Shown here piece after piece: positions 16,332 through 64,000 of a stretch of DNA of 64,000 nt (position 1 is the first letter of the stretch; every line of letters begins with the position of its first letter). The stretch lies in NCBI GenBank assembly GCA_039932315.1, contig JBDTQG010000006.1, forward strand, positions 10,160 through 74,159, in the 5' to 3' direction. Source of the stretch: Thermoanaerobaculia bacterium. GTDB lineage: Bacteria; Acidobacteriota; Thermoanaerobaculia; Multivoradales; JAGPDF01. The translations under genes were made by a program, and so were the position numbers. The notes beneath the pieces were generated by a model. The model was not told the DNA's origin. It searched no databases and saw nothing but the letters and a program-made list of their open reading frames with translations.

Positions 16332-16346
16332 CATCGACCGGTCGGG

Positions 16347-27107: not shown

Positions 27108-27113
27108 TCGTAC

Positions 27114-29041: not shown

Positions 29042-29065
29042 GGAGCGCTCCTTTTCGTGCGTCGT

Positions 29066-29662: not shown

Positions 29663-29702
29663 GATCGGAGCGCCACGGATCGGATGCGTCTGCGGGCGCC
29701 GG

Positions 29703-29978: not shown

Positions 29979-30186
29979 TCCAAGCCTCCTTGAATCTCGC
30001 CCCATTCTCTTCGACCAGTCGCTGGATCTCGAACAGTTCGTGTGGGCGAAAGCCTGTGGATCCTGCCAGCCCGACCGGTTCGAGCCAAAACTTGGCCAGC
30101 ATTCGCTCTCGGCGCACATGAATATGGAGCGGCTCGAAACCCTCGTTCCCATAGAAAAAGAACCGATAGGGCCCTATCCGCGTCAC
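29959..30186 (-). CDS. DUF4160-domain protein (partner of DUF2442; putative TA-like pair)
   Basis: MTRIGPYRFFFYGNEGFEPLHIHVRRERMLAKFWLEPV. Overlaps the downstream DUF2442 gene start. Confidence 0.6.
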   Translation of the reverse strand: MTRIGPYRFFFYGNEGFEPLHIHVRRERMLAKFWLEPVGLAGSTGFRPHELFEIQRLVEENGARFKEAWNDFFSA

Positions 30187-48299: not shown

Positions 48300-48330
48300 G
48301 CCGCGCAGCGCGGCTAGCGCGCTGCGCGGC
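48300..48330. terminator. 13-bp-stem palindrome between the convergent S8 protease and cytochrome genes (candidate bidirectional terminator)
   Basis: GCCGCGCAGCGCG-gcta-GCGCGCTGCGCGGC. It begins 11 nt after the S8 stop and overlaps the last codons of the cytochrome gene. Confidence 0.5.
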
Positions 48331-50071
48331 GACGCCGCAGAACGAACCAGCCGGCAGCCGCGAGAAGCGCTGCGGCGGTCGCGAGCCCGGTCGGAGAAAG
48401 CGCCGGGATCTCGATGACACCGCCGGTACCTTCGACCACGATCGTCGCTTCGTTGCGCGCCACCTCGACCTCGATCGGGTCGCCGTGCGTGGTCACTGTC
48501 CACCCCTTGGTGACCGCGAGGGCGCGCCAGGCGCGACGATAGAGAAGCACCGCGGTGACCTCGACGTTCGATCCCGCGGGCGTCCCCGGCGGCACGGCGA
48601 ACTCGACCTCGGTCGTGTCAATCGTTCCGGAGGGGATCGTGGTGAGCGAGAAAACGCTCTCGGCATCGATGAACAGGACCGGCATCACCACCGGCCCCTG
48701 CCCGTTGATCCGCCCCTGCAGCACCTTCGCGAAGCCCTTGCCGGGCTGACCGGCGAGATCGCCCGGCTGATCGCCCGGGACGTCGTCCGAGCCCCAGAAC
48801 GGAATCTTCGGACCGGAGACCTGCGCGAGCGGCTGCCCGTTGAGGGTCGCCGTGATCCACAGCATCGCGTTGCGGATCGAGATCCCGGTGGGGAAGTCGT
48901 GCCCGGCGCCGAAGTTGTCGATCGAACTCGTGACCTTGACGTTTCCGGACGGCAGCTGCGCGGCGCTGCTCGTGAGCGCGATGTTCGCCGACAGCGTTTG
49001 CGGCGTCGAGCCGATGAACGTGTGCGCGTGGCGCTGCGCGCTCTGTCGTGTCGGCGCTCCGAATTCGCAGTTCTCGCCTTCGCCCGCGAGGTTCGGCATG
49101 TGGCAGTCCTGACAGACCTTGTAGTTCGGGCCGGGCGTGCCGTACGGCGAGCTCTGCCATTCGAGGAAGGTGTTCTGCCCCGGGGCGTCGGTCGTCGGGT
49201 TGTGGTACTGATGGCAGGAGGCGCAGATCTGGGATTTCGTGTGCAGCAGCGAGTAGGACGGTCTCATCAACGAGAACGTGACGTCGTTCATCGGTCCCCA
49301 GACGTACGAGGCCGTCGAGGCGCCCTTCGATGGAACCGGAAAGCGGTAGGTCGCCTTGCCGCGGTGATGGAGCGCATTGATGTGCGACTCGTCGATCGAA
49401 TCCATCTGATGGCAGGTGACACAGATCACGCCCTGGGCGCCGTTCGGTTCCGTGGCCTCGTCGAGCGGCACGCCCTCGGGCCGCGGATCCTGCAGGTCCT
49501 GCATCGGCGCGTGGCAGGTGGCGCAGAAGCCGGTTTCGCCCGGATCGTGACTGTTCTTGAAGACATAGCCCGCGCTCCCGCCGGGCGTCCCCGTTCCCGA
49601 GAACAGATCGAGCACCCACTTGTTCTGCGCCGTGTAGGCGTGGTGCGAGGTCGTCCACTGCTTGTAACGCTCGAAATGGCAGGCACCGCACTCGGAAACA
49701 TCGGGCGGCACGTAGCTCGGATCGTTCGTCGTCGACATCTCTTCCATGCGGATGTCGATGCCGGTATCTCCGTCGGCGGCCGTCGCGCCACCGATGATGA
49801 AGTTCTGCGGCGCGCTGCGCAGATAGGGAATCGACGCCGCGAGAAAGACCAGGCCCGGCGGGATGCCGGTGAGAGTGAAGCTGCCGTCGGCGGCGGAGAA
49901 AGTGCCGGGAGTCGTCAAGTCGGCCTGGATGTGAACGTAGGCCCCGGCGATCGGCGTTCCCGGCTCTCCGCTGCCTTCGACCCGGACGAGACCGGAGACG
50001 TCCGCTGACGCCGACGTGGCGATCGTCCAGAAGGCGGCAAAAGCGAACGTGCAGATCCGGCTGCGGGCCAT
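48314..50071 (-). CDS. Pentaheme c-type cytochrome with N-terminal carboxypeptidase-regulatory-like domain and PEP-CTERM/IPTL-CTERM-like anchor
   Basis: Start at MARSRICTFAFAAFWTIATSASA. N-terminal CarboxypepD_reg-like β-sandwich (GLVRVEGSGEPGTPIAGAYVHIQ...ADGSFTLTGIPPG). Five CxxCH sites (CGACH, CATCH, CVTCH, CASCH, CQDCH). The C-terminus is IEIPALSPTGLATAAALLAAAGWFVLRRRRAAR*. Confidence 0.7.
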   Translation of the reverse strand: MARSRICTFAFAAFWTIATSASADVSGLVRVEGSGEPGTPIAGAYVHIQADLTTPGTFSAADGSFTLTGIPPGLVFLAASIPYLRSAPQNFIIGGATAADGDTGIDIRMEEMSTTNDPSYVPPDVSECGACHFERYKQWTTSHHAYTAQNKWVLDLFSGTGTPGGSAGYVFKNSHDPGETGFCATCHAPMQDLQDPRPEGVPLDEATEPNGAQGVICVTCHQMDSIDESHINALHHRGKATYRFPVPSKGASTASYVWGPMNDVTFSLMRPSYSLLHTKSQICASCHQYHNPTTDAPGQNTFLEWQSSPYGTPGPNYKVCQDCHMPNLAGEGENCEFGAPTRQSAQRHAHTFIGSTPQTLSANIALTSSAAQLPSGNVKVTSSIDNFGAGHDFPTGISIRNAMLWITATLNGQPLAQVSGPKIPFWGSDDVPGDQPGDLAGQPGKGFAKVLQGRINGQGPVVMPVLFIDAESVFSLTTIPSGTIDTTEVEFAVPPGTPAGSNVEVTAVLLYRRAWRALAVTKGWTVTTHGDPIEVEVARNEATIVVEGTGGVIEIPALSPTGLATAAALLAAAGWFVLRRRRAAR

Positions 50072-50228
50072 CGGGTCAGGTCCTCCGAAGAGTGGGAACC
50101 GGCTCATTCTCCGTCATCGTCCGGGCGCTGGCTAGCCTGCTGCGGCGTTTTCTGCGGCGAGGCCTCCGCCCCTGTTGCCTCCTGCACAGCCCGCGTCCCT
50201 CGAGCGCCACAAAATCCGCCTTACTGTC

Positions 50229-51965
50229 ATGAGAAAACACTGGCTGGTGGCCGTCTTCGTCGCGGCAGCGCCGCTCCTCGCCGAACCGGTCCGGGCCGAC
50301 ATCGGTCTCTCGCTGGCGTATGTCGACCTCGGATCGCCGGCCTACGCGCGTTTCAAGAGCTTCGTCGATCAGGCGGTCGGGGGAAACCCGGGCTATGCCT
50401 TCTCCGCCACGGACGCGGTCTACATGTACAAGCTGACCGGCCAGCCGCAGTATGCGACGCTCGCCATCTCCTGGGTGGAGGATCAGGTGACCGCCGCCGA
50501 GGCGGCGATCGCCAGCAGCCAGAGCCCCGAGATCGCCGGCGACTCCTATCTCGCGGTCGGCGGAATGCTGCGCGACGTGGCGCTGGTCTACGACTGGTGC
50601 TATCCGCTGCTCACCCCGACGCAGCGCACCCGCTGGGCGGCCTACGCCGATCAGGCGGTCTTCAATGTCTGGAACCACGCCACGGCGAGCTGGGGCGGGC
50701 ACCCTTTTCCCTGGTCGGGCTGGTCGGTCGACAACCCCGGCAACAACTATCACTACAGCTTTCTCGAAGCGACGATGTACTGGGGCTTCGCCGGCGACCG
50801 GCAGAACTGGATCGACTACCTCGCGAACACCAAGCTGCCCGCTCTGGTCTCCTACTTCCAGGCGCTGCCCGGCGGCGGGAGCCGCGAAGGCACCGGCTAT
50901 GGCGTCGCTCTCGGCCGGCTCTTCGAGATCTACCGCCTGTGGAAGGACTCGACGCCGACGCACGCCGATCTCGGCGCCCAATCGACGCATCTCGCCGACA
51001 CTCTGGACTACTGGATTCACGGAACGGTACCGACGCTCGATCGCTACGCGCCGATCGGCGATCTCTCGCGCGAGTCCTATCCCTCGCTCTACGACTATCA
51101 CCGCAACCTGGTGCTCGAAGCCCGCGCCATGACCGCCGCGCCCGGCGGCACCGCCGTCGCCGCACGCGCGAGCTGGTGGCTGCACCACATCGCGGTCGAC
51201 GAGATGACGTCGGGCTTCAACTTCCGCGACGACCTCCTGCCGGCCGGCTCGACACAGACGCAACCCACGGCGCTCTTTCATCATGCGACCGGCGCGGGGC
51301 ACCTCTTCGCGCGCCGCAGCTGGGCGACGGACTCGCCATGGATCTCCTTCGTCGCGGGGCCGTACGTCGAATCGCACGCCCATCAGGACCAGGGCGCATT
51401 CAACTACTTCCACAACGACTGGCTGGCGGTGACGGAAAACATCTGGAGCCACAGCGGCATCGAACAGGGAACCGAGATCCACAACACTCTCCGCTTCCTG
51501 AACGGCAGCGCGACGATTCCGCAGACCGAGAGCACTTCGTCGATGACCGTCAGCGACAGCGCCGGCGTGCTGCACGTCGCCGCCAATCTGACTCCGGCGT
51601 ATGCATCTTCCGGGGTCATCAGCAACTGGCAGCGCGCTCTGGACTTCGATTCGACCAGCCTGACGGTGACGGACAACTGGAGCGCGGCCGGCGGCGTGAC
51701 CGCGGTCTTTCAGGTCAACGTTCCGGCGACGCCGAGCGTCACCGCGGGAGTGATCACCGCGGGCGCACTGCGGATCCGCCCGATCACTCCGGCGAACCCG
51801 GCGATTTCGATCGTCAACTGGCACAACGTCGACACCGAGGAGTTCAACTCCGGCTACAAGGTCGAGCTCCGTGGCGGCACGGGAACCTACGTCGTTCGAC
51901 TCGAGTACCTCGGTGGACTGTTCTCGAACGGCTTCGAGAGCGGCAACTTCAACGCCTGGGACTGA
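50229..51965 (+). CDS. Secreted heparinase II/III-like / alginate-lyase-like polysaccharide lyase family protein ending in the tail motif
   Basis: Signal peptide MRKHWLVAVFVAAAPLLAEPVRA. N-terminal α/α-toroid-like region and Hepar_II_III-like β-sandwich (VESHAHQDQGAFNYFHNDWLAV). The C-terminus is LEYLGGLFSNGFESGNFNAWD*. Confidence 0.55.
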   Translation: MRKHWLVAVFVAAAPLLAEPVRADIGLSLAYVDLGSPAYARFKSFVDQAVGGNPGYAFSATDAVYMYKLTGQPQYATLAISWVEDQVTAAEAAIASSQSPEIAGDSYLAVGGMLRDVALVYDWCYPLLTPTQRTRWAAYADQAVFNVWNHATASWGGHPFPWSGWSVDNPGNNYHYSFLEATMYWGFAGDRQNWIDYLANTKLPALVSYFQALPGGGSREGTGYGVALGRLFEIYRLWKDSTPTHADLGAQSTHLADTLDYWIHGTVPTLDRYAPIGDLSRESYPSLYDYHRNLVLEARAMTAAPGGTAVAARASWWLHHIAVDEMTSGFNFRDDLLPAGSTQTQPTALFHHATGAGHLFARRSWATDSPWISFVAGPYVESHAHQDQGAFNYFHNDWLAVTENIWSHSGIEQGTEIHNTLRFLNGSATIPQTESTSSMTVSDSAGVLHVAANLTPAYASSGVISNWQRALDFDSTSLTVTDNWSAAGGVTAVFQVNVPATPSVTAGVITAGALRIRPITPANPAISIVNWHNVDTEEFNSGYKVELRGGTGTYVVRLEYLGGLFSNGFESGNFNAWD

Positions 51966-54216
51966 CCGGGAGCTCCGCGGTCTCCGTCGGCCGGTCCTGG
52001 CCGAAGAGCGCCGGGACGAGCGTGAAGTCGGCGATGACGGCGATCACGATCGCGACGCCGGAGAGAACCCCGAAGCGCGCAGTCGGCGCGAAGTTGGAGA
52101 GCGCGCAGACGCCGAATCCGCACGACAGGATGATGCCCGTCAGCAGATAGGCCGGGGCGGTCTTTTCCATCCGGTCGGCGACCGCGGCGCGCTCTCCCAT
52201 TTCGACACGGAGCTCGCGATAGTGCGCCAGCGTATGGATGGTGTCGTCGACCACGAGCCCGAGCGTGATCGAGGCGACCATCACCGTCGCGATGTCGAGC
52301 GGCACCCCGAACCAGCCCATGCCACCGAGGATGAGCAGCACCGGCCAGAGGTTCGGCGCCAACGCGTAAAACGTGCCGCGCGCGTCGCGGAGCAGGATGT
52401 AGAACGTGAGCGCCAGCACCGGTAACGTGAGGATCAGCGACATCGCGAGCGTGGAGATGAGGTAGCGCTGCATGGCAAGGAGGAGCGGGAACTGGCCCGT
52501 GACGACGACCGCCGCGCCCGGAAGCGTCGTCGCGGCCACTCGTCGCACTTCGGCGATCAGCGGGTCGACGGCTTCGTAGCCCACCGTCGGAACGAAGAGG
52601 GTCAGGCGTGCGCGCGTGCCGTCCGGTGAGAGAAAGCGCTCGAGCGCACGGCGCCCGGCGGCGTCGCTCTCGACCAGCGGCAGCAGACGGGACCGGAGCT
52701 CCGCGGGAGTGAAGGCGCGCGCCATCGGGCTGGCGCGCCCAATGTCGTCCAGCAGATCCGTCGCCGTAACTGCCGAGAAGAGGCCCGGCAGCCGGCGAAG
52801 TTCCGCGGCGAACCGGGCGAGCTGATCGAGCCGTTCGGGGTCGCGGAAACCCGCGCCCTCCCCCGCCGCAGAACTGCCGGAAACGGACAGGACGAGCTCG
52901 ATCGACGACAGCCCGATCCCCTCGGCCTCGACCGCTTCGATGCTGGCGCGTGCGGGATGATCCGGCGCGAGATAGTGCAGCGCGTTGCTCGCCACCACGA
53001 GCCGCGGCAAACCGGTCACCGCGAGCAGCGCGAGACCGCCGTAGATGAGGAGCACCGTACGGCGATGATCCGCGGCGAGATCGGTCAAGCGCCGGCCGAG
53101 CTGCTGCAACCTCCGCTCGAGAACGCGTTCGGGCAGATTCGTTCGCCGCCCCATCGTCATCGCGAGCAGGCAGGGAAGGAGGGTAAACGCCGCTATGCCC
53201 GTGAAGGCGAGGCCGACGCCGGACCAGAGGCCGAGCGTGCGGATCGGCGCAACGGGAGTCGCCGCGAGCGAAAGAAAGCCGGCGAGCGTCGAGACCGTCG
53301 TCCAGAGGAGCGCCCGACTCTTGTCCTTGTAGGTCGCGAGCGTGGCTTCGACCGCGTCGAGTCCTTCGGCCTCGATGTCGCGACACCGCATCATGATGTG
53401 AACGGCCGAGGCCAGAGCGATGACGAAGAGGATCGGCGGCAGGATGGCGAGGACGAGGTTGAACTTCACTCCGCCGTAGCCCATGGCGCCGAGAACAGGG
53501 AGCTCCACCGCGGCGACGAAAACGAGCGGCACGGCGACCGCTGCGAGCTCGCGGAACATCGCCGCCAGAAGCAGTGCGGAGAGGATGAGCAGTAACGGGA
53601 AGTAGAACTGACCGACTTCGCGCGCCGACTCATCGAGCGCGCGCTCGAGCGTTGCCGCGCCGACGACGGACGCCTTCACACCCGCCGGTGGCGACGCCGT
53701 CCGGCGCTCGAGCTCGGCGAGGAGCGCCTCCTGCTCTCTACCCTGACCCGGCGCGAGCTCGACGACGAGAGAGAGCTCACTTCCACTCGCGGTGACGAAT
53801 CCCAGCGCGCGATCGAGATCGTTGGCGCGGAGGAGGGCACGAAAACCCGCCGGATCCGTCGGCGGAAACGTGACGAGCTCCCGGCGATGGTGACCGACCG
53901 GCCCGTTGACGCTCTGCACTCCCGGAATGCCGGCGATCTCGCGCTCGAGGCGGTCGAGGAAAGCGAGCCCATCGGCGCTCCACAGCTGCGTTCCGCCGAG
54001 GACGATCCGCACTCCGTGCCCCGTGCCGAAGCGGGCGACGAAGTCGCGATAGCTCGCGAGATCGCTCGATCCGGCGAGAAAGAAGACCTCGGGAGAGTTG
54101 TCGCTCTGGAGGCGTGCGACACCGGGCAGCAAGGCTGCGACGGCGAGCGCGAAAAACGCCAGAACGAACCGCCGTCGGCGGAGGACGGCTGCGACCAGTG
54201 CGTCGAGAAACTTCAA
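51949..54216 (-). CDS. MMPL/RND-superfamily lipid exporter (HpnN/MmpL-like)
   Basis: Two 6-TM bundles separated by large periplasmic loops, with an RND/MMPL hydrophobicity pattern. Proposed TTG start at 54216 (reading MKFLDALVAAVLRRRRFVLAFF) overlaps the upstream gene stop (TTGA). The track N-terminus is Arg/Pro-rich noise. Confidence 0.7.
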   Translation of the reverse strand: MKFLDALVAAVLRRRRFVLAFFALAVAALLPGVARLQSDNSPEVFFLAGSSDLASYRDFVARFGTGHGVRIVLGGTQLWSADGLAFLDRLEREIAGIPGVQSVNGPVGHHRRELVTFPPTDPAGFRALLRANDLDRALGFVTASGSELSLVVELAPGQGREQEALLAELERRTASPPAGVKASVVGAATLERALDESAREVGQFYFPLLLILSALLLAAMFRELAAVAVPLVFVAAVELPVLGAMGYGGVKFNLVLAILPPILFVIALASAVHIMMRCRDIEAEGLDAVEATLATYKDKSRALLWTTVSTLAGFLSLAATPVAPIRTLGLWSGVGLAFTGIAAFTLLPCLLAMTMGRRTNLPERVLERRLQQLGRRLTDLAADHRRTVLLIYGGLALLAVTGLPRLVVASNALHYLAPDHPARASIEAVEAEGIGLSSIELVLSVSGSSAAGEGAGFRDPERLDQLARFAAELRRLPGLFSAVTATDLLDDIGRASPMARAFTPAELRSRLLPLVESDAAGRRALERFLSPDGTRARLTLFVPTVGYEAVDPLIAEVRRVAATTLPGAAVVVTGQFPLLLAMQRYLISTLAMSLILTLPVLALTFYILLRDARGTFYALAPNLWPVLLILGGMGWFGVPLDIATVMVASITLGLVVDDTIHTLAHYRELRVEMGERAAVADRMEKTAPAYLLTGIILSCGFGVCALSNFAPTARFGVLSGVAIVIAVIADFTLVPALFGQDRPTETAELPVSPRR

Positions 54217-55454
54217 GCGCAGGTCGCCGGACGGGCCGCCATTGCGGCCGGGAGCGGCCAGGCAAGCCGGCTGCAGAGGCGCAGAGATCGGGCGAGCGGC
54301 AGTCCGGCGAAGGGGCGCCGTGCGCCGAGGAGGCCGAGGAAGCCCGAGAACAGAACCGGATCCGCCGAAAGCGCCGCGACCAGGCGCCGTCGCAGCGCCG
54401 GGCGGCGCGCGAGCGCGAGCAGAAGGTACGTCCATCGTTGCGGTAGCGCCGCGAGGTTCGCGGCGCGCCGGGCGTACACCCCGAGGTCTCCCAGTGCGAG
54501 AGCTTCACCGAGTTCGAGCGCGCTCTCGAACCCGAGCGAAAGCCCTTCGCCGGTGAGGGCGTCGACATAACCCGCCGCGTCGCCGACGAGCGCCAGCCGC
54601 CTGCCGGCGGAGACCGTCCCGCGCGTGCGTTGCAGAAAAGGCCCGGCGCCACGATCGCGACCGAGCGCCTCCGCTCCGGCAATGCGCTGCGCGAAGCTCG
54701 CCGGAATCCGCGACGCGAGGAGCTCGTCGAATCCGCCCTTTCCGCCACTCCACAGAATCGCGACGCCGATCTCGTCGGCGGCGAGCGGCGTCACATAGAC
54801 CTCGGCGCGATCGCCGAACGTCACCTCGACATGATCGGACCAGGGCGCGAGACGCAGATGCCGGGTCACGCCGAAGCGGGCGTTGCGCCCGGGCGTTGGG
54901 CTGCGCTCGCCCGGACCGCTGCGACGGGCGCGACCCGCGCGCTCCAGTCCGCTGTCGCGCCGGAGATGCGAGTGCAGGCCATCGGCACCGACGACGAAGC
55001 GGCAGGGCCAGACACGGTCCGCGGAACGCACCTCGCCGCTGCCGGCGGCGAGAACGCGAACGCCCCATTCGAAGGTGACTCCCACCGCGATCGCACGCTC
55101 GTGGAGCGCCGCGGCGAGCTCGGTGCGGCGGACGCCACGGCCGCAGAGACCGTCCGGGAAGGCGGCTTCGGCGACGCACCCGTCGGAGACGTAGCGAATT
55201 CCACGAAACGGCATCGAGCGCGCAGGAAGTGCGACGCCGAGCGCCCGGAGGGCCGCGAGACCGGACGGCATCAGGCCCTCGCCGCAGGCTTTGTCGATCG
55301 GCGGACGCTGGCGATCGACGACCAGGACCGTCAATCCGCGGAGCCGCGCGGCGATGGCGCTCGCGAGACCGACCGGGCCGCCACCGACGACAACGACATC
55401 CTGTGCCGGACCGGTCGACGGCGGCGACGCTTCCGGTGGCTCGTGAATATTCAT
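54213..55454 (-). CDS. FAD-dependent oxidoreductase of the geranylgeranyl-reductase family
   Basis: Start at MNIHEPP. Rossmann motif VVVVGGGPVGLASA. KACGEGL and LALVGDAAGYVDALTGEGL (GDAAG) are GGR-family signatures. Its ATGA overlaps the GT2 stop. Confidence 0.75.
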   Translation of the reverse strand: MNIHEPPEASPPSTGPAQDVVVVGGGPVGLASAIAARLRGLTVLVVDRQRPPIDKACGEGLMPSGLAALRALGVALPARSMPFRGIRYVSDGCVAEAAFPDGLCGRGVRRTELAAALHERAIAVGVTFEWGVRVLAAGSGEVRSADRVWPCRFVVGADGLHSHLRRDSGLERAGRARRSGPGERSPTPGRNARFGVTRHLRLAPWSDHVEVTFGDRAEVYVTPLAADEIGVAILWSGGKGGFDELLASRIPASFAQRIAGAEALGRDRGAGPFLQRTRGTVSAGRRLALVGDAAGYVDALTGEGLSLGFESALELGEALALGDLGVYARRAANLAALPQRWTYLLLALARRPALRRRLVAALSADPVLFSGFLGLLGARRPFAGLPLARSLRLCSRLAWPLPAAMAARPATCA

Positions 55455-56218
55455 CGCCGGAGCTCCGGCGGCTCGCCGGCAAAGCGCAGGAAACGCGGCC
55501 GCGCGAGCCCGGTGCGGGCGAGGAAACCCGCCAGAGCCACGTGCAGCACGCCGAAGCCGTAGCGCAGCGAAGGCAGCAGGGAGATCGACGAGGCCTCGGG
55601 GAAATACTTTGCCGGACAGGAGATCTCGCCGATGCGGAAGCCTGCGGCGAAGCACTGCACGAGGAGCTCGTTGTCGAAAATGAAATTGTCCGAGTTTTCC
55701 GTCAGTGGAAGGCGCTCGAGAACCTCTCGCCGGTAGGCGCGAAAGCCGGTGTGGTACTCCGAGAGCTTCTGCCCGAGGAGCAGATTCTCGACCAGCGTCA
55801 GAACGCGATTCGAGATGTACTTGTAGAGCGGCATGCCGCCGGCGAGCGCACCGCCGCCCAGAATCCTCGAGCCCAGGGTCACGTCGTATTCACCGTAGGC
55901 AATCATCGCCGCCATGGCCGGCACCAGACGCGGGGTGTACTGGTAGTCCGGATGGAGCATCACGATGATCTCCTCCGGACCGGCGAGGGCCGCCGCATAA
56001 CAGCTCTTCTGGTTGGCGCCGTAGCCGCGGTTCGCCGGGTGGAGGTAGGTCTCGATGCCGAGCTTCCGCGCGATCGCCACCGTATCGTCGCCGGAGGCAT
56101 CGTCGACCAGCAGGATGCGATCGACGATCTCACGGTCGATCTCGCGGAATGTCCGCTCGAGCGTCGACTCCGCGTTGTAGGCCGGCATCACGACGCAGAC
56201 GCGCTTTCCCAGGATCAT
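55451..56218 (-). CDS. Family 2 glycosyltransferase (DPM1/polyprenyl-phosphate sugar transferase-like)
   Basis: VCVVMPAYNAESTL...LLVDDASGDDT (DxD-containing GT-A fold N-terminus). Confidence 0.8.
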   Translation of the reverse strand: MILGKRVCVVMPAYNAESTLERTFREIDREIVDRILLVDDASGDDTVAIARKLGIETYLHPANRGYGANQKSCYAAALAGPEEIIVMLHPDYQYTPRLVPAMAAMIAYGEYDVTLGSRILGGGALAGGMPLYKYISNRVLTLVENLLLGQKLSEYHTGFRAYRREVLERLPLTENSDNFIFDNELLVQCFAAGFRIGEISCPAKYFPEASSISLLPSLRYGFGVLHVALAGFLARTGLARPRFLRFAGEPPELRR

Positions 56219-56295
56219 CGCCCGGCCATTCTATTCCCCCGTGTTACGCTCGATTCGATCGCTGCAGAACTGCGCGAACTGGGGGCGATGCCGTC

Positions 56296-59200
56296 GTGAC
56301 CGAGAGAGATCCACGCTTGCAGACGCTGCTCGATCGGCGCTATCGGATTCTCGAACGCGTCGGCGAGGGCGGTGCGGGGGTGGTCTATCGCGCGCGTCAC
56401 GAGGAGATGGACCGGACGGTTGCGATCAAGGTCCTGCACCCGGAGCTCTTCCCCTCGCCGGTCGCGCTGGCGCGCTTTCGCCGCGAAGCACGCGCCGCCG
56501 GTGTCCTCGTTCATCCGCACGCCGTCACGGTGTTCGACTTCGGACGCACCGACGAGGGCGAGCCGTACCTCGCGATGGAATACTGCGACGGCGGCGCCCT
56601 CTCCGACCGGATCGCCGCCGCCGCGGACACCGGCAATACCGCGGACGCTCTCTCCCCGACGGCGACGGTCGCTCTCCTTTCCGGAATCGTCGCGGCCGTC
56701 GACAGCGCGCATCGACAGGGGATCGTGCATCGCGACCTCAAGCCGGGCAACATCCTTTTCGCCGGCACGGTCGCGAAAGTCGCCGATTTCGGCCTCGCGC
56801 GGATGCTCGACAGCGATGATCCCGGTCTTACGGCGGGCCACGCCATCGGTTCGCCCTTCTACATGAGCCCGGAGCAGTGCCAAGGCCGCCCCGCCGGAAC
56901 CGCGAGCGACATCTACAGTCTGGGCGTCATCGCCTACACACTGCTCACCGGTCAGGTTCCGTTCCGCCGCGGCACGGCGCAGGAGGTCCTGCTCGCTCAC
57001 CTCACCGAGGAACCGCTGCCGCCGCAGGCGCTCGCACCGCGGCTCGGGAGAGCGCTCTCGGGCGCGGTGCTCCGCGCGCTGGCGAAGAATCCGGATGCCC
57101 GTCCGGCGACGGCGGGCGAATTCCACGCCGCCCTCGCCGCGGCGCTCGCCGAGACGACGCTCGAGAGCGCAATGCCGCTTGCGATCTCCGGACAGGGCAG
57201 CGCCGGAACGTCCAGGTCCGGCATGCCGGGCCACGGACTCGCTGCAGCCGGCTCATCGTCGAGCGCCTTGCGCGTGCGCCGAGCCCTGCGCGACCGGTCG
57301 ACCGGAGCTCCCAGCGAGCCGATCGGACGCGGCGAAGAGCTCGCTCTGCTCCAGGAACTGCTGCAGGCGGCGAGCTCGGGAAGCGGTCAACTGGTGACCA
57401 TCGCCGGCGAACCGGGCGCCGGCAAGTCGACCCTCGCCCACGCCTTCCTGCGGCGGGCGCGAATGACTGTCCCGGTCGCGCGGATCGCGCTCGGACGATC
57501 GCCGGAGCACTTCGGCTCCGCCGAAGCGTATTCGCCGTTTCTCGATGCGCTCGGCAATCTCCTCGCCGGCGGCGAGCGCACGCTGCTCCTGCCCCGCCTC
57601 CTCGATCTCGCGCCGACCTGGGCGCTCCATCTGCCGGGGGTCGCGAGTGAAGTCGAGGCCGGCGCCGGAGAGACGCTTGCCGGCATGCGCTCGCGCGACC
57701 GCATGCCGCGCGAGTTCGCGGCGTTCGTCGAAGCGACGACCGCCGACCGTCCGCTCGTCCTCCTGCTCGAGGATCTGCAGTGGGCCGATCCGGCGAGCGT
57801 CGATCTGCTGGTGCATCTCACCCTGCGGCTCGAGGGGTTGAGGCTTCTGCTCCTCGGCACCTATCGCCCGGCCGAAGTCGAAGCCCAACGCCATCCGCTG
57901 CGCGCGGCGCTCGCGCACCTCGGGCGCGGGAGTCTGCCGTGGAGCGAGATCTCGCCCGCGCCGTTTGCTGCCGGCGAGGTCGAGGCTTTCCTGCGGCGTG
58001 AGCTCGGCGCGCCGCCGCCGCCCGAGCTCGTGGCCTTCGCCCTGCGCCGGACCGAGGGCAATCCGCTTTTCCTTCTGAACGTTCTCAATCACCTTCTGCA
58101 GTCCGGCGCGGTCACGCGCGACGGAGATCAGGTGATTCTTGCGCGCTCGCTCGATTCGATGGAGCGCATCGTTCCGGAAGGAATCGTGGCGCTCATCCGC
58201 CAGAAAGTGGACCGGCTCGACGACTCCGATCAGCGGCTGCTCTCGGCGGCAAGCGTCGAAGGCCTCGAATTCACCGCCGCCGTCGCCGCTCGACTCTCCG
58301 GTCGCGACGAAATGGAAATCGAGGAGCGTCTGCGCGCGCTGCAGGCGACACACCACCTGGTCGAGCCGATCGACGAAGTCGAGCTCGCGGGAGGGCATTC
58401 CATCCAGCGCTATCGCTTCGTGCACTCGCTCTACCAGCACGCTTTCTACGACGCGCTCGCGCCCAAGCGTCGTGCCGCAGCGCACCTCGCGGCGGCCGAG
58501 GCGCTCATGGCGTTCCACGCCAGCCACCTCGAATCGATGCGCGTCGCCCTCGCGCTGCACTTCGAACGGGGACGGGATTTCCCGCGCGCGATCGAGCAGT
58601 GCCTCGCTGCGGCGGAGCTCGCCGGCTCGCGCAACCCACGCGACGCGCGGCCGCTGCTCGCGAAGGCGCTCGAGCTCGCCGGCAAGCTCTCGCCCGAGGA
58701 GGCGACGACCCGCCGCGCCGAGCTGCTGATCCGGCTCGGGCGCCACGACGCCGAGAGCGCGGAGTTTGCCGGCGATGTCGAGCTCTACGCGCGCGCCGAA
58801 GAGGCGGTCTCGGAGGCTCTCGAGCTCGAGCCGGGATCGGTCGAAGCCCGCACGGTGCTCGGCCTCATCCATCTAGAGCGGGGCGAGAACGAACGCGCTT
58901 TCCTCGACTTCGCCCGCACCCTCGAACGAGCGCCCGCGCACGCCGGGGCCTGGGACGGCCTGTCGTATCTGTTCAAGAACACCGGACTGTGGACGGCGTC
59001 GCTCGCCGCGCAGGAGCGCGCCGCCGAGCTCGACGACCGCTTCGCCTTCTCGATCCGGCGACTGTCCGTACTGATCTACCAGGATCGTCTCGAGGAGGCG
59101 CGCGCGGAAGCGACGGCGCTCGTCGAGCGGCGGCCGAAGTTCGCCCACTACAACTACTGGCGCGGAATCGCCTCCTGGTACGCCGGCGAGCGCGCCGAAG

Positions 59201-59610
59201 CCCGGCGCTGGATCGAGCAGGCCTATGCGCTCGATCCCGCCGATCCGATCGCCCAGTGCTGTCTGGCTTTCGTTCTTGCGGCGGAAGGGCTGACCTCGGA
59301 GGGAGCGCGCTGCCGTGAGCTTTTAGCGACGGCCGAGCCGGGCGCCGCTGCCGACGGCACCTTCACGTTCTGGATCGCCAAGGTGCACGCCCTGCTCGGC
59401 AATTCCACGATCGCCCTCGACTGGATCCGGAAGGCCGCGGCGCTCGGCTTCTGGGATGCGCCGTGGATGCGCAAGGACGCCGCGATCGCCAGCCTGCATC
59501 CGCTGCCGGAGTTCATCGCGCTCGCCGCCGAAATCGAAGCGCGGCAGAGCTCCTTCCGCGCCTTCGTCGCGAAAGAGGCGCCGACGGCGCTCGGTCGGCT
59601 CCAGCTCTGA
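56296..59610 (+). CDS. Ser/Thr protein kinase fused to AAA/NTPase (STAND-like) and TPR-repeat domains
   Basis: Kinase subdomains VGEGGAGVVYRA, AIKVL, HRDLKPGNIL, DFGLA, SPFYMSPE. P-loop GEPGAGKST. Long TPR-like C-terminus. GTG start proposed at 56296, after the divergent GT2 start. Confidence 0.8.
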   Translation: MTERDPRLQTLLDRRYRILERVGEGGAGVVYRARHEEMDRTVAIKVLHPELFPSPVALARFRREARAAGVLVHPHAVTVFDFGRTDEGEPYLAMEYCDGGALSDRIAAAADTGNTADALSPTATVALLSGIVAAVDSAHRQGIVHRDLKPGNILFAGTVAKVADFGLARMLDSDDPGLTAGHAIGSPFYMSPEQCQGRPAGTASDIYSLGVIAYTLLTGQVPFRRGTAQEVLLAHLTEEPLPPQALAPRLGRALSGAVLRALAKNPDARPATAGEFHAALAAALAETTLESAMPLAISGQGSAGTSRSGMPGHGLAAAGSSSSALRVRRALRDRSTGAPSEPIGRGEELALLQELLQAASSGSGQLVTIAGEPGAGKSTLAHAFLRRARMTVPVARIALGRSPEHFGSAEAYSPFLDALGNLLAGGERTLLLPRLLDLAPTWALHLPGVASEVEAGAGETLAGMRSRDRMPREFAAFVEATTADRPLVLLLEDLQWADPASVDLLVHLTLRLEGLRLLLLGTYRPAEVEAQRHPLRAALAHLGRGSLPWSEISPAPFAAGEVEAFLRRELGAPPPPELVAFALRRTEGNPLFLLNVLNHLLQSGAVTRDGDQVILARSLDSMERIVPEGIVALIRQKVDRLDDSDQRLLSAASVEGLEFTAAVAARLSGRDEMEIEERLRALQATHHLVEPIDEVELAGGHSIQRYRFVHSLYQHAFYDALAPKRRAAAHLAAAEALMAFHASHLESMRVALALHFERGRDFPRAIEQCLAAAELAGSRNPRDARPLLAKALELAGKLSPEEATTRRAELLIRLGRHDAESAEFAGDVELYARAEEAVSEALELEPGSVEARTVLGLIHLERGENERAFLDFARTLERAPAHAGAWDGLSYLFKNTGLWTASLAAQERAAELDDRFAFSIRRLSVLIYQDRLEEARAEATALVERRPKFAHYNYWRGIASWYAGERAEARRWIEQAYALDPADPIAQCCLAFVLAAEGLTSEGARCRELLATAEPGAAADGTFTFWIAKVHALLGNSTIALDWIRKAAALGFWDAPWMRKDAAIASLHPLPEFIALAAEIEARQSSFRAFVAKEAPTALGRLQL

Positions 59611-59666
59611 TCCAGACTCCGCGCTAGCCTCGTCGTTGTTGCGCTGGTAGGGGCCCGATCCGGCGC

Positions 59667-60206
59667 CTAGCGCAGCTCCCGCCGCATGATGACGCGCAGG
59701 TGCATGGGGAAACCGCCCATCGCTTCGCGCTGCTGCAGGCGGACGAGGCCGGGGGTGAGCTCCTCCGGTCGCAGGATGCGAAAGCCGCGCTTGGCGTAGA
59801 ACGGAGCGTTCCAGGAAACATCGGTGAGCGTCGCCAGCGTGATCGCGCGATAGCCACTCACGCGCGCGATCGCGGCGACCGCCTCGAGCAGCTGGCTGCC
59901 GACGCCTCGTCCGGAAACCTTCGGATGCACGTCGATCTCCTCGAGATGAGCGATGCCGTCGATCTCGCTGGTGTAGGCCATGCCCACCGGCGGCGAGTGG
60001 TCGATCGTCGCGACCCAGAGCGTGCGCGCGCGGACCTGCCGCGCGAAGAGATCGGGCGAAAAGTTCTGTCGCCAGAAGGCATCGAATGCCGGATGCCCCT
60101 CGAAGCGCAGGGTCGCCGCGCGTTCGATCGGCGCGAGCCACGGGATGTCCTCCATCTCGCCACGCCGGATCATCACTTCCCCGCCATTCATCGCCGCTTC
60201 CTCCAC
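59667..60206 (-). CDS. GNAT-family N-acetyltransferase
   Basis: Acetyl-CoA-binding motif region VSGRGVGSQLLEAVAAIARVSGYRAITL. Confidence 0.6.
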   Translation of the reverse strand: MEEAAMNGGEVMIRRGEMEDIPWLAPIERAATLRFEGHPAFDAFWRQNFSPDLFARQVRARTLWVATIDHSPPVGMAYTSEIDGIAHLEEIDVHPKVSGRGVGSQLLEAVAAIARVSGYRAITLATLTDVSWNAPFYAKRGFRILRPEELTPGLVRLQQREAMGGFPMHLRVIMRRELR

Positions 60207-62020
60207 ATTGCGAGCCGCGAGCGCACGAGTGCCGCGGCCAGGCGCAAAGCTCCGGTCGGTTCCGGAGGCGCCAGGGTTCCGGAAAGATATCGCTGCATCG
60301 CTTCGCCACGGCGGATTTTTCCCGATGACGTGCGCGGCAGCGTCCCGGGAGCGAGAATCTCGACCTGCTGGACGGCCAGCCCGACGCGCGTCAGCACAGC
60401 TTCGCGCGCGCGCGTGCGGAGGAGCTCGAAGCGCTCGGCCGGAACATCCTTCGCGTGCTCGACGAAGAGCACAACGGCTTCGGTGTCCCCGCCGGGCGGG
60501 AGATGGCTCGCCGCAGCCACACAGCCGTGACGGACGTCCGGCAACTCGGATACCGCAAGCTCGAGATCGGCCGGAGCGTAGTTGCGACCGCGCACCAGAA
60601 GAATCTCCTTGGCACGTCCGGTGAGGAAGAGCTCGCCGTCGTGAAGAAATCCGAGATCTCCCGTATCGAGCCAGCCGGCCACGAGCGACCGCGCGGTCGC
60701 CTCGGGCTGATCGAGATATCCCCGCATCAGCGAGGGTCCTGAGACGAAGAGCCGGCCGACGCGATCCGGCGCGAGGGCCCGGCCGTGACGGTCGCGGAGC
60801 TCGATGCGGAAACCCGCGAGAGGCTTGCCCACCGAAGCGATCTCGAGCGCCGCCGCGGGGTCCTCCTCACGTCTCGCCTCGCCGCGCTCGATGAGCGCCG
60901 AGCGGTCGAAGCTCAACGCCGTGAACGGGCGCTCGAGGTCGGAGAACGTCACCGCGAGCGCCGCTTCAGACAGTCCGTAGACCGGCTTCAGTGCCTCGGC
61001 GCGAAAGCCCCAGCGGGCGAAACGCTCCGCAAATGCGCGCAGCACGGCGGGAACGACCGTCTCCGCGCCGCACAAGGCGAGGCGCCAGGACGACAGATCG
61101 AGTCCCTCGAGCTCCTCGTCGCGAATCCGCTCGGTGGCGAGCGCGTACGCGAAGTTGGGCGCCGGAGAGATCGTCGCGCGATGCCGCGCCAGTGCGCGCA
61201 ACCAGAGCGCCGGGCGCGCGACGAAGGCCTCCGGAGGCAACAACGTCAACACCGCCGGCCGCTCGAGCGCCGGAAACACGCATCCGATGAGCCCCATGTC
61301 GTGGTACAGCGGCAGCCAGCAAACGCCGCTGAGCGGCGTCGAGTCAATTACCCCGCTCAGCGGCGTCGAGTCAATTACCCCGCTCAGCGGCGTCGAGTCA
61401 GTGACCCCGCCCGGCGGCGGCGATTCCTCTCTCTTCTCCGGCCAGAGCGCGTTCAGCGCCGCGACCTGCGCGAGGACCGCGCGCTGCGTGAGCGCCACCG
61501 GTTTCGGCTCGACCGTCGTCCCGGAGGAAAACTGAACCAGGGCGAGATCCTCCGGATCGCCGTTACTCGCCATCGGGGTGGCGTCGGGCAGCTCGTCGAG
61601 CGTCCGTCCGCCGAGAGCGAGATCCGCCGCGGCCAGCGTTTCGCCGAGGAGAGCGCCGATGCGCTTTTCCGAAAGCAGCAGTCGCGCCCCCGCCGCCCGG
61701 AGCATGGCGGCGGTTCGACCGTGGTACTCCGCCAGCCGTCCGAGACGGACGGGCGGATAGAGCGGCACCGGCACGGCACGCGCGAGGAGCGTCCCGAAGA
61801 AAGCGAAGAAAAAATCGGCCGACGTCGGATAGATCAGTGCAACGCGCTCGCCCGGCCGGACGCCGACCGCCGCCAGCCCGCCGGCGACGCGCGAGCTTCT
61901 CTCCGCAATGGCCGCCCAGGAGAGAAAGGTTTCGCGCTCGGCGCGATCGATGAGGCGCAGCCCGCTGTGCGGAAAGCCGCGAGCGCGCTCAAGGAGGCCC
62001 TGCAGCGTATCGGGTCGCAT
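60188..62020 (-). CDS. Fatty acyl-AMP ligase (FAAL) / AMP-dependent synthetase
   Basis: AMP-binding motifs LVQFSSGTTVEPKPVAL, YGLSEA, WLDTGDLGF, PRTSSGKIRR. The context (ACP and type III PKS downstream) favours a FAAL. Contains an in-frame (TDSTPLSGV)x3 insertion. Confidence 0.8.
   Translation of the reverse strand: MRPDTLQGLLERARGFPHSGLRLIDRAERETFLSWAAIAERSSRVAGGLAAVGVRPGERVALIYPTSADFFFAFFGTLLARAVPVPLYPPVRLGRLAEYHGRTAAMLRAAGARLLLSEKRIGALLGETLAAADLALGGRTLDELPDATPMASNGDPEDLALVQFSSGTTVEPKPVALTQRAVLAQVAALNALWPEKREESPPPGGVTDSTPLSGVIDSTPLSGVIDSTPLSGVCWLPLYHDMGLIGCVFPALERPAVLTLLPPEAFVARPALWLRALARHRATISPAPNFAYALATERIRDEELEGLDLSSWRLALCGAETVVPAVLRAFAERFARWGFRAEALKPVYGLSEAALAVTFSDLERPFTALSFDRSALIERGEARREEDPAAALEIASVGKPLAGFRIELRDRHGRALAPDRVGRLFVSGPSLMRGYLDQPEATARSLVAGWLDTGDLGFLHDGELFLTGRAKEILLVRGRNYAPADLELAVSELPDVRHGCVAAASHLPPGGDTEAVVLFVEHAKDVPAERFELLRTRAREAVLTRVGLAVQQVEILAPGTLPRTSSGKIRRGEAMQRYLSGTLAPPEPTGALRLAAALVRSRLAMWRKRR
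61326..61406. repeat. 27-nt x3 in-frame tandem repeat inside the FAAL gene
   Basis: CCGCT(G/C)AGCGGCGTCGAGTCAATTACC x3 (third copy GTGACC), encoding TDSTPLSGV x3. Confidence 0.85.
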
Positions 62021-62052
62021 TCCCTCGAAAGTGCGCGGAGACGGGCGGAAGA

Positions 62053-62295
62053 CTAGACGGCGAGTTTCTGCGCGAGAATCGTCGCGAGATCGCCGAGGGT
62101 CGCGATGGCGGATTCTTCATCGGGCTCGAGCGTGATCCGGAAGCGATTCTCGACTTCGGCGGCGAGCGTCACGAGCTTCAGCGAGTCGAAACCCAGATCC
62201 TCGACCAGCCGCAGTTGCGGTTCGAAGTCACCCTCGTAACCCAGATGTTCGCGCGCCACCGCGAGGATGCCGGCTTCGATCTCGGCGCGCGTCAT
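62053..62295 (-). CDS. Acyl carrier protein
   Basis: MTRAEIEAGILAVAREHLGYEG...LVEDLGFDSLKLVTLAAEVE (phosphopantetheine-attachment DSL motif). The track ORF's long Arg-rich N-terminal extension is rejected. Confidence 0.75.
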   Translation of the reverse strand: MTRAEIEAGILAVAREHLGYEGDFEPQLRLVEDLGFDSLKLVTLAAEVENRFRITLEPDEESAIATLGDLATILAQKLAV

Positions 62296-62894
62296 GCCTC
62301 TCCCCAGGGCAGCAGGCGGGCTCGCCCGGCGAGACGTTCCCGGTAGTTCCCGGTCGCCTCGAGCGCCCGCTCTTCGTGGCGGATTCGCGCCACGAGAAGA
62401 AGCGCGTTCGCGACCGTGGCAAGAAGCGCGGTGAGCCAGGCGCAGTGCACGAGCGGCAGCGCAGCGACCTCGAGAACCACCGCGACGTAGTTCGGATGGC
62501 GCACGAAGCGATATGGACCCGAGGCGACCGCCGCGGCTCCGGGCACGACCAGTACGCGCGTATTCCAGCGGTCGCCCAGCGTGACGATGGCCCAGTAGCG
62601 CAGCGCCATCGTCAGTACGACGATCCATGTCGCGACGATCGCGATCGGCGGAATGAACGGGCGCTCGAAAAGCAGCACTTCGATCGGTCCCGCGGCGAGA
62701 AAGACCACATGCGCGACCACCATCAGAAGGTAAAAGCCGCGCGACTCCCCTTCGACCGCGCCCAGCGCGCGAGCGCGTCTCGCGTTGCGCAGCGAGAGCG
62801 CCATTTCGAAGACGCGCTCGATCGTCACCAGGGCGACGAGAAGGAGGAAGAAGCGGGTGCCGGGCGCGAGAGTCACAGGCGCGAAAGCTACCAT
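62292..62894 (-). CDS. Isoprenylcysteine carboxyl methyltransferase (ICMT/PEMT)-family membrane methyltransferase (SrsB/FtpB-like)
   Basis: Start at MVAFAPVTLAPGTRFFLLLVALVTIERVFEM. Signature GPYRFVRHPNYVAVVLEVAALPL. Overlaps the ACP start (ATGA). Confidence 0.7.
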   Translation of the reverse strand: MVAFAPVTLAPGTRFFLLLVALVTIERVFEMALSLRNARRARALGAVEGESRGFYLLMVVAHVVFLAAGPIEVLLFERPFIPPIAIVATWIVVLTMALRYWAIVTLGDRWNTRVLVVPGAAAVASGPYRFVRHPNYVAVVLEVAALPLVHCAWLTALLATVANALLLVARIRHEERALEATGNYRERLAGRARLLPWGEA

Positions 62895-62910
62895 CGGCCG
62901 ACTCGCGTTC

Positions 62911-63990
62911 CTACCACCTGAGCAACACGAGCTCGCTGCAGAAGCCCGGTCCGAGCGCAAGCAGCATGCCCAGTGCCCCCGCCGGGGGCCGGCGCTCGGC
63001 CAGAGTGGCTTCGAGGACCAGGAGCACCGAAGTGGACGAGAGATTCCCCACTTCGCGCAGGCTCTTCCAGGTGAGCTCGAGAGCGCCGGGCGGCGTTTCC
63101 AGAGCGTTCTCCATCGCCTCGAGGACTTTCGGTCCGCCGGGATGACAGACCCACGAGGAGATGTCGCCACGCGTCAGGTTCCGCTCCGCGAGAAATGCGT
63201 CGACGTCGCCGCGCAAATGCTCTTCGACGACTTTCGGCACGTCGGCCGAAAGCACGATCTGAAACCCGGTCTCGGTGATGTCCCAGCCCATGACGCGCTC
63301 GGAATGGGGATAGAAAATCGAACGCGTCGCGACGATCTCGGGTCCGGTCGGCGCGGCGTTCGCCCGCTGCGCGAGAGAGCGCGCACGCTCGTCCCCGACA
63401 ACGACCGCGGCCGCGGCGCCATCGCCGAAGAGACCGGAAGCGACGAGGTTGGGAATCGAAATGTCCTGGCGCTGCAGCGTGAGGGAGCAGAGCTCGACGG
63501 AGAGGAGCACTGCGACGCCGTTCGGAAACGCGCGCACATAGTCGGCCGCGCGCGCGAGCCCGGCGGCGCCGGCGACGCAGCCCAGTCCGAAAATCGGATT
63601 CCGTTTGAGGTCGCTGCGCAGCCCCAGCCGGTTGATCAGGCGCGCGTCGATCGACGGCGTCGCGATGCCGGTGACGCTGACGAAATAGAGCGCGTCGATG
63701 TCCGTGAGCTCGAGCCCGCACTTGGCGACGGCCGATGTGATGGCTCGTCCGCCGACCTCTTCGGCAACGCGGATCCAGGCGTCGTTCGACTGACCGAACG
63801 TCGTGAGCGCCGGATACTCCTCGATCGGCAAGGCGAGGTGGCGACCGCCGACCAGGACATTCCGATGCAGCTGTTCGATCCGTTCAACGTTGAAATAGCG
63901 CCCTTCCCAGTACTGCCGGAAAGCGGCGATGAGGGTCGACTGATCGTAGAAGTTCGCCGGAAACGCCGACCCGACGGCGGCGATCTTCAT
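62911..63990 (-). CDS. Type III polyketide synthase (chalcone/stilbene synthase family; alkylresorcinol/alkylpyrone synthase-like)
   Basis: Catalytic Cys in FGLGCVAGAAGL, His in SWVCHPGGPKVL, Asn in EVGNLSSTSVLLVL. Length 359 aa. Confidence 0.85.
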   Translation of the reverse strand: MKIAAVGSAFPANFYDQSTLIAAFRQYWEGRYFNVERIEQLHRNVLVGGRHLALPIEEYPALTTFGQSNDAWIRVAEEVGGRAITSAVAKCGLELTDIDALYFVSVTGIATPSIDARLINRLGLRSDLKRNPIFGLGCVAGAAGLARAADYVRAFPNGVAVLLSVELCSLTLQRQDISIPNLVASGLFGDGAAAAVVVGDERARSLAQRANAAPTGPEIVATRSIFYPHSERVMGWDITETGFQIVLSADVPKVVEEHLRGDVDAFLAERNLTRGDISSWVCHPGGPKVLEAMENALETPPGALELTWKSLREVGNLSSTSVLLVLEATLAERRPPAGALGMLLALGPGFCSELVLLRW

Positions 63991-64000
63991 CGCGGGTCGC

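Follow-up and report, generated by a model that had tools for sequence, protein, structure and literature searches.

A 64,000-nucleotide stretch of DNA from the Thermoanaerobaculia (Acidobacteriota) contig JBDTQG010000006.1 (positions 10,160 to 74,159 of the forward strand; assembly GCA_039932315.1), here called the window, is likely to carry a phenolic-lipid biosynthetic cluster of the ftp type known from Myxococcus xanthus. We put the probability of this reading at about 0.8, on the strength of protein families, gene order and analogy with characterised operons. A sequence-only reading of the same DNA had proposed a cluster with ftp/srs logic, in which a fatty acyl-AMP ligase (FAAL) and an acyl carrier protein (ACP) supply an acyl starter to a type III polyketide synthase (PKS), followed by O-methylation; the kind of PKS, the features of the FAAL and the order of four genes all agree with that proposal.

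Biosynthesis is predicted to begin with the FAAL, which would adenylate a long-chain fatty acid and load it onto the stand-alone ACP. The acyl-ACP would prime the type III PKS and be extended with malonyl, and possibly some methylmalonyl, units; ring closure, most likely through an aldol condensation, would then yield an alkylresorcinol or alkylresorcylic acid. An ICMT-family methyltransferase would O-methylate a ring hydroxyl, and an FAD enzyme encoded at 54213-55454 would hydroxylate the ring to give an alkyl-methoxy-hydroquinone or quinone. Genes for a family-2 glycosyltransferase (GT2), an MMPL transporter, a GNAT acetyltransferase and a small membrane protein point to a lipid that undergoes further decoration and leaves the inner membrane. 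The core steps (FAAL to ACP to PKS, O-methylation and ring oxidation) draw on family identities and on biochemistry published for ftp, srs and pkq. Chain length and ring type are inferred, as are the sequence of tailoring and what the GT2, GNAT, MMPL, small membrane and kinase proteins do; glycosylation, acetylation and export of the lipid would be a reasonable reading.

The PKS, its acyl-loading partners and their conserved order

The five genes first proposed as the cluster are as follows.

62911-63990, minus strand: type III PKS of the alkylresorcinol/alkylpyrone synthase type, 359 aa (Pfam Chal_sti_synt_N/C)
62292-62894, minus strand: ICMT-family integral-membrane methyltransferase, 200 aa (Pfam ICMT, 9e-28)
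62053-62295, minus strand: stand-alone ACP, 80 aa (Pfam PP-binding, 1e-7; NCBIfam ACP models)
60188-62020, minus strand: FAAL, 610 aa (Pfam AMP-binding, 2e-55; NCBIfam FAAL families first)
59667-60191, minus strand: GNAT acetyltransferase, 174 aa (Pfam Acetyltransf_1, 3e-12; also Acetyltransf_7 and Acetyltransf_10)

Their positions, common strand and every domain call are as the sequence-only reading gave them. Families were assigned with Pfam and NCBIfam, and solved relatives were ranked against the PDB (with phmmer for the PKS). A homologue scan using one genome per species yielded 80 loci encoding PKS relatives (individual loci are given as L numbers), and 85 PKS sequences were aligned and placed in a neighbour-joining (NJ) tree. 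GC content is ~0.66-0.70 around the locus, and this high GC crowds mechanical lists of open reading frames (ORFs); start codons were refined by inspecting gene junctions and the alignments of relatives. The ICMT gene starts with an ATG 16 nt past the PKS stop, the ACP start overlaps the ICMT stop as ATGA, the FAAL starts 32 nt past the ACP stop, and the GNAT start overlaps the FAAL stop, again as ATGA. A GTG at 60206, where the GNAT gene had earlier been started, is probably not its true start.

For the proposed pathway the PKS would have to be of the lipid rather than the non-lipid kind, as had been claimed, and the rankings point the same way. Pfam matches are 3e-20 (Chal_sti_synt_N) and 1e-19 (Chal_sti_synt_C), and the closest solved relative is Pks11 of Mycobacterium tuberculosis (4JAO; E=7e-108, full-length alignment). 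After Pks11 the ranking runs, at much lower scores, through CylI, the Streptomyces coelicolor naphthalene synthase and plant chalcone synthases (Pks11 364 bits, CylI 216, THNS of the RppA type 157, plant CHS ~110). DpgA was the top NCBIfam match, at 194 bits against a cut-off of 425, and that identity was dropped. By these comparisons the PKS appears to lie nearer to lipid-utilising bacterial enzymes than to RppA-, DpgA- or plant-type enzymes, and JGI labels its homologues 'alkylresorcinol/alkylpyrone synthase'.

The Cys-His-Asn triad reported earlier is indeed present: Cys138, His283 and Asn316 align with Cys138, His277 and Asn310 of Pks11 and, like Trp236, are invariant across the 85 aligned homologues. 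Trp236 pairs with Trp230 of Pks11, the equivalent of a Trp that ArsB requires to form resorcinols and that is kept in FtpA, SrsA, PKS10 and PKS11 (PMC5916927); the same resorcinol-determining point is Trp281 in ArsB and Gly in ArsC (PMC9927152). Pks11 itself has been grouped with FtpA and SrsA (PMC5916927).

Enzymes of the FAAL type are expected to reject CoA. In EcFAAL, Trp224, Met231 and Phe279 block the pocket, together with a FAAL-specific helix (PMC8460268). The window ligase has Trp235, Met242 and Phe290 at the aligned positions, its segment 263-269 (PEAFVAR) is gapless against the EcFAAL helix region, and across the insertion region its residues 343-400 align to EcFAAL 331-390 with a lone one-residue gap, as judged from the printed EcFAAL alignment. 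Among solved relatives, the top 18 places all go to FAALs or to loading domains of the FAAL type (including EcFAAL 3PBK, FadD23, FadD32, FadD28 and LpFAAL 3KXW), and CoA ligases rank below them, aligning only partially. The pocket-blocking residues, the helix region and the PDB ranking thus support the assignment as a FAAL and not a true acyl-CoA synthetase, on which the earlier proposal had hinged.

Within the FAAL gene, a 27-bp tandem repeat (61326-61423, minus strand; 3.6 copies, 91% matching in Tandem Repeats Finder) runs in frame and encodes VIDSTPLSG units, which add ~25 aa to a surface loop flanked by the P-loop and WLPLYHDMG motifs. The insertion is missing from 11/11 aligned relatives; it may reflect recent expansion by slippage, or a problem of assembly.

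The remaining core proteins are consistent with the same pathway. In the ACP, Ser38 lies within a DSL motif. The ICMT gene follows the PKS gene in all FAAL-linked loci, and its homologues are 48-54% identical in Kribbella loci ordered PKS-ICMT-flavoprotein; this enzyme presumably carries out the O-methylation of the phenolic lipid.

Fifteen independent loci in other genomes or metagenomes repeat the order PKS-ICMT-ACP-FAAL, and L010 repeats it as far as the ACP gene, where that contig ends; this arrangement is not due to chance. PKSs of the FAAL-linked loci are at least 64% identical to the query and form a single clade in the NJ tree, whose lone non-FAAL member is L010, the truncated contig. 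FAAL and ACP genes are lacking from the other loci, which belong to Terriglobia, Acidobacteriaceae, Bryobacteraceae, Binataceae and Kribbella. A single kind of FAD-enzyme gene, the counterpart of the window flavoprotein, directly follows the PKS gene in 42 of these non-FAAL loci, and five Kribbella loci are ordered PKS-ICMT-FAD enzyme; PKS-methyltransferase-FAD enzyme is the srs/pkq order (PMC9927152). The classic ftp order, with the flavoprotein as gene 5 right after the FAAL, was seen in L008, L009, L012 and L088, the last of which has no GT2 and no MMPL gene. Since the cluster forms nest on the PKS tree, they suggest a stepwise gain, from the flavoprotein only, through the addition of GT2 and MMPL and then of GNAT, to the insertion of a kinase gene.

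One of the classic-order loci, L012, comes from a metagenome-assembled genome (MAG) labelled Myxococcota. Its PKS is 70-73% identical to Thermoanaerobaculia proteins; nearly all named entries among the best 120 matches to it are Thermoanaerobaculia MAGs, and none of those 120 is named Myxococcus, so the locus is no stand-in for M. xanthus. The contig may have been mis-binned or horizontally acquired.

The flavoprotein and the wider operon

Ring oxidation in the proposed pathway would call for a hydroxylase, which the sequence-only reading thought might lie beyond position 64000, and it had labelled the gene at 54213-55454 a geranylgeranyl reductase (GGR). Both ideas now give way to a single candidate within the window. 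The genes that bear on this and on the extent of the cluster are as follows.

63987-64000, minus strand: end of an upstream gene (Asp-Pro-Arg-stop) cut by the window edge; its TGA overlaps the PKS ATG
56296-59610, plus strand: Ser/Thr protein kinase with AAA_16 ATPase and TPR domains, ~1100 aa (Pfam, NCBIfam)
55451-56218, minus strand: GT2, 255 aa (Pfam Glycos_transf_2, 2e-22)
54213-55454, minus strand: FAD-dependent oxidoreductase, 413 aa, counterpart of the flavoprotein in srs/pkq/ftp-type operons
51949-54216, minus strand: MMPL/HAE3-type RND transporter, ~755 aa from a TTG start (Pfam MMPL, 8e-24)

The gene at 54213-55454 fits the hydroxylase. The gene-5 enzyme of L012, encoded after the FAAL, has a single match in the window (54300-55367, minus strand; 49% identity). 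In 47/80 loci the gene directly after the PKS, or after PKS-ICMT, encodes a protein 32-52% identical to the window flavoprotein, a pattern that spans Acidobacteriota, Kribbella and Binataceae; identity is 38-43% in the Kribbella loci of srs/pkq order. With type III PKS genes as its context in those 47 loci, and with only 80 bits against a cut-off of 159 for the GGR subfamily model TIGR02032, the GGR label is not retained. An identical protein is annotated by NCBI as 'FAD-dependent monooxygenase', and by analogy with the srs, pkq and ftp systems the enzyme is presumed to be a ring hydroxylase (PMC9927152, PMC10896814). Halogenases top the fold search for this protein, yet the WxWxIP motif was not found by eye in its sequence, and a halogenase reading was rejected.

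Every relative examined has a co-directional gene for a small hydrophobic membrane protein (~140 aa) directly before the PKS gene. The protein is 138-145 aa in L081, L082, L083, L085, L087, L088 and L089, except that the L081 gene call gives 246 aa; identity across four aligned copies is 56%, and neither Pfam nor NCBIfam gave a match. Because its end matches the end of that protein in relatives, the gene fragment at the window edge is taken to be the same gene.

The fullest arrangement is that of L089, a groundwater metagenome contig whose PKS is 76% identical. Nine co-directional genes, with abutting or overlapping ends, encode in order the 141-aa membrane protein, PKS, ICMT, ACP, FAAL, GNAT, GT2, FAD enzyme and MMPL transporter. 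L085 has eight of these nine, without GNAT only, and a multiheme cytochrome gene comes next; in L087 the GT2-FAD-MMPL module is placed after inserted peptidase genes. The window, L004, L082 and L084 follow the L089 order, but with an opposite-strand kinase gene between GNAT and GT2 (and a few further genes there in L084). Within the window, GT2 and flavoprotein overlap as ATGA and flavoprotein and MMPL as TTGA, giving four coding overlaps in all (ATGA or TTGA), which are read as translational coupling. A promoter and terminator scan of 51-64 kb was uninformative, its sites being fewer than in shuffled controls. Because the contigs of relatives (L089, L085) hold both halves as one operon, the cluster appears to be larger than five genes, covering 51949-63990 plus the small membrane-protein gene cut by the window edge, and so reaching beyond 64000. 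The earlier suggestion that the neighbouring GT2-GGR-MMPL genes could supply tailoring and export is borne out further than it went, in that they share an operon with the PKS in L085 and L089.

Functions are less firmly assigned for the added proteins. In L085, L087 and L089, GT2 is immediately flanked by FAAL or GNAT on one side and by the flavoprotein on the other; its best NCBIfam and PDB matches are dolichyl-phosphate hexose or mannose synthases (DPMS) and ArnC, all far under the family cut-offs. MMPL follows the flavoprotein in L084, L085, L087 and L089 and is presumed to be the lipid exporter (NCBIfam: HAE3 at 167 bits, with weak HpnN-like matches). GNAT copies 64-81% identical occupy the same position in L001-L005, L007, L084 and L089; the nearest solved relative is the PA2271 acetyltransferase (3e-15). 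Within the operon, GNAT is restricted to the sub-clade of the window, where it fills the slot that the flavoprotein has in classic ftp-order loci.

The kinase gene, whose GTG start at 56296 follows from where the alignments of relatives begin, recurs in that place in L004, L082 and L084 but is missing from L085 and L089, where GT2 is abutted by FAAL or GNAT. The gene splits the operon in the lineage of the window, and may encode a regulator or be an unrelated insertion. Several frame-shifted pieces stand for the kinase, GNAT and MMPL genes in the MAG loci L082 (16262-19700) and L084 (11059-13489); these may be pseudogenes or sequencing or assembly frameshifts, so the gene calls there are unreliable.

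Beyond the operon, several neighbours were recorded. A pentaheme c-type cytochrome (48314-50107, minus strand) has five CxxCH motifs, an N-terminal CarboxypepD_reg-like domain and an IPTL-CTERM sorting tail, and is loosely syntenic with the cluster, a homologue adjoining MMPL in L085 and the flavoprotein in L086. Convergent on MMPL is a gene for a 596-aa protein of no known family (50175-51965, plus strand), with a 63% identical copy in the same place in L089; the minus-strand ORF 50076-51824 was rejected as a spurious arginine-rich frame, since it is the opposite-strand gene that L089 conserves. Just upstream of the small membrane-protein gene, L081 (8097-8981), L082 (8260-9515), L087 (2680-3833) and L089 (8274-9484) have divergent genes for an ArsR-family regulator and a SAM methyltransferase (Methyltransf_11/23/25; the methyltransferase only in L081), which look like an arsenic-methylation pair; the window ends short of this position. 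Downstream in L084, the closest long contig, 16064-20320 encodes a second ICMT-family methyltransferase, a 4HBT thioesterase and glyoxalase-fold, DUF2938 and Anthrone_oxy-like proteins, which may be further aromatic-lipid tailoring genes.

Weighing the alternatives

Several observations weigh against an ftp-type reading or loosen parts of it. Trp236 does not by itself settle the ring type, as Pks11 has the same Trp yet is reported to make alkylpyrones. The ligase matches FAAL families in all its top-ranked NCBIfam models, though under their curated cut-offs; the best, NF006624, reaches 426 bits against 600, its match split in two by the repeat insertion peculiar to the window. In the window, GT2, flavoprotein and MMPL make up a transcription unit apart from the PKS genes. 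For the flavoprotein, the highest NCBIfam score is with the geranylgeranyl-reductase superfamily model. Its AF2 model (pLDDT 88) has a fold about equally like halogenases, squalene epoxidase, PqsL and a GGR-like protein, at ~18% identity; such a match would place it in the flavin monooxygenase/halogenase/GGR class without discriminating within it, so a reductase role is possible. Finally, the relatedness of the window proteins to authentic FtpA-E, SrsA-C and ArsB/C is indirect.

Whether the ring is a resorcinol or a pyrone, how long the chain is and whether it is methyl-branched lie beyond what sequence can decide, and the same pathway might use a lactonising PKS, giving alkylpyrone methyl ethers (as with Bacillus subtilis BpsA/BpsB, or Pks11 in vitro) instead of resorcinols and quinones. 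Pks11 is the closest solved relative, and its crystal-structure paper, as relayed by PMC5916927, gives methyl-branched alkylpyrones as its product; the JGI label on homologues allows for either ring. Set against this are the invariant Trp236 at the ArsB Trp281 position (PMC5916927, PMC9927152) and the association of the flavoprotein with the PKS in 47/80 loci, resorcinol-derived rings being the substrate in the srs/pkq precedent (PMC9927152). We regard pyrone formation as unlikely, though it deserves to be kept in view.

A second alternative, which we hold to be about equally unlikely, concerns the physiological role of the product rather than its biosynthesis: the lipid could be a membrane polyketide quinone acting as a respiratory electron carrier, as in the PkqABC systems of mycobacteria and Streptomyces, and not an envelope or defensive lipid. 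The triad of PKS, methyltransferase and flavoprotein defines the pkq operon (PMC9927152), and the pentaheme cytochrome gene comes after MMPL in L085, after the flavoprotein in L086 and 1.8 kb from MMPL in the window. An MMPL exporter and a GT2 would be less expected of a quinone pool in the inner membrane than of a lipid that is decorated and exported, and an opposite-strand gene parts the cytochrome from MMPL in the window.

For the nine-gene form of the cluster, a more speculative proposal, to which we give rather little weight, is a phenolic or quinone lipid that is glycosylated by GT2, possibly acetylated by GNAT and exported by MMPL to the outer membrane, a diderm counterpart of the mycobacterial phenolic glycolipids; or else an exported polyketide quinone that would work with the IPTL-CTERM pentaheme cytochrome in extracytoplasmic electron transfer.

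It is improbable that the five genes are self-contained and that GT2, flavoprotein and MMPL are mere neighbours serving, for example, isoprenoid or envelope glycolipid metabolism. Such a division would suit the convergent kinase gene that separates the two groups in the window, the GGR superfamily as best model for the flavoprotein, the likeness of GT2 to polyprenyl-phosphate transferases, and L088, which has neither GT2 nor MMPL. It sits poorly with L085 and L089, where these genes are contiguous and co-directional with the PKS genes and have overlapping junctions, and with a flavoprotein that follows type III PKSs across Acidobacteriota, Kribbella and Binataceae and is gene 5 in the classic ftp-order loci. 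That FAAL and ACP instead feed GNAT to make an N-acylated amine, with the PKS linked by proximity only, is very hard to credit even though the overlapping FAAL and GNAT genes would be translationally coupled, as the FAAL-linked loci L008, L009, L012, L085, L087 and L088 have no GNAT, its Pfam matches are to small-molecule acetyltransferases and not to acyl-ACP-dependent N-acyl synthases, and the invariant core is PKS-ICMT-ACP-FAAL.

Relation to known systems and significance

An ftp-type cluster is expected to combine a FAAL that loads a stand-alone ACP, a type III PKS primed by the acyl-ACP, a methyltransferase and a flavoprotein oxygenase, and this likeness was assessed through gene order and published descriptions. 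In the M. xanthus system FtpB is the methyltransferase, FtpC the ACP and FtpE the oxygenase. FtpA is the type III PKS and FtpD the FAAL, according to citations of Hayashi et al. 2011 in PMC5707447, PMC5006271 and PMC10896814; FtpD loads the ACP used by FtpA (PMC5707447), and the Srs and Ftp products are oxidised to alkylquinones (PMC10896814). The M. xanthus cluster has also been described as a PKS, a methyltransferase, an AMP-dependent synthetase and a monooxygenase, with an equivalent in the acidobacterium Mor1, and 47-58% identity has been reported between an acidobacterial cluster and that of M. xanthus (PMC5006271). The ftp-like order PKS-methyltransferase-ACP-FAAL-flavoprotein is that of the related loci L008, L009, L012 and L088. 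Compared with ftp, the window has GNAT as gene 5, the flavoprotein moved between GT2 and MMPL, a small membrane-protein gene before the PKS and a kinase gene splitting the cluster, and its host belongs to the Acidobacteriota.

Other systems share parts of this design. In the arsABCD cluster of Azotobacter vinelandii, which makes cyst alkylresorcinols and alkylpyrones, the starter comes from dedicated type I fatty acid synthase-like proteins and not from activation by a FAAL; methyltransferase and flavoprotein genes are both absent. BpsB of the two-gene B. subtilis bpsA-bpsB system is an ICMT-like methyltransferase, and there, as in the window, a type III PKS and a membrane methyltransferase act on a long-chain product; this system makes alkylpyrone methyl ethers and has no FAAL, dedicated ACP, flavoprotein or exporter. 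The ars system resembles the present proposal in that a carrier-bound long-chain starter is handed directly to the type III PKS (PMC5707447), its product is an envelope phenolic lipid, and Trp236 of the window PKS occupies the ArsB Trp281 position. The Streptomyces griseus srsABC operon and the pkqABC operons of Mycobacterium smegmatis and Streptomyces (alkylresorcinol to alkylquinone; polyketide quinones) have in common with the window a type III PKS with the resorcinol-position Trp, an adjacent methyltransferase and an FAD oxidoreductase; they differ in being three-gene operons with no dedicated FAAL or ACP (PMC9927152) and no GT2, MMPL or GNAT. Hopanoid HpnN and mycobacterial MmpL offer an analogy limited to export, in that an RND/MMPL transporter is encoded beside lipid genes; the window protein scores far under those family cut-offs, and no orthology is claimed.

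A literature search on type III PKSs with MmpL, glycosyltransferases or Acidobacteria found no description of the extended architecture with GT2, MMPL, GNAT and the membrane protein. The core would thus be a further case of the characterised ftp type, and the extension, given the outcome of that search, is taken as undescribed.

Elsewhere in the window, GC content falls to 0.59-0.62, against ~0.67, over 22000-30000. Two minus-strand genes there encode an MmeI-family restriction-modification enzyme (23895-26819) and an EVE-HNH endonuclease (22565-23407), and the stretch was probably acquired as a defence island.

Among the known roles of the phenolic lipids that type III PKSs produce are the stiffening of cyst and spore envelopes, changes in antibiotic tolerance and, in actinomycetes, service as back-up respiratory quinones. 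Acidobacteriota, Thermoanaerobaculia among them, abound in soil and groundwater but are seldom cultured, and to our knowledge their chemistry is almost unexplored. The present cluster is an incremental extension of a known pathway family and not a new principle, and its decoration and export module is a prediction. These results suggest that a FAAL-primed phenolic-lipid pathway is carried by a whole Thermoanaerobaculia/Acidobacteriota clade, for which the L089-type operon would provide a concrete nine-gene set with a clear product prediction.

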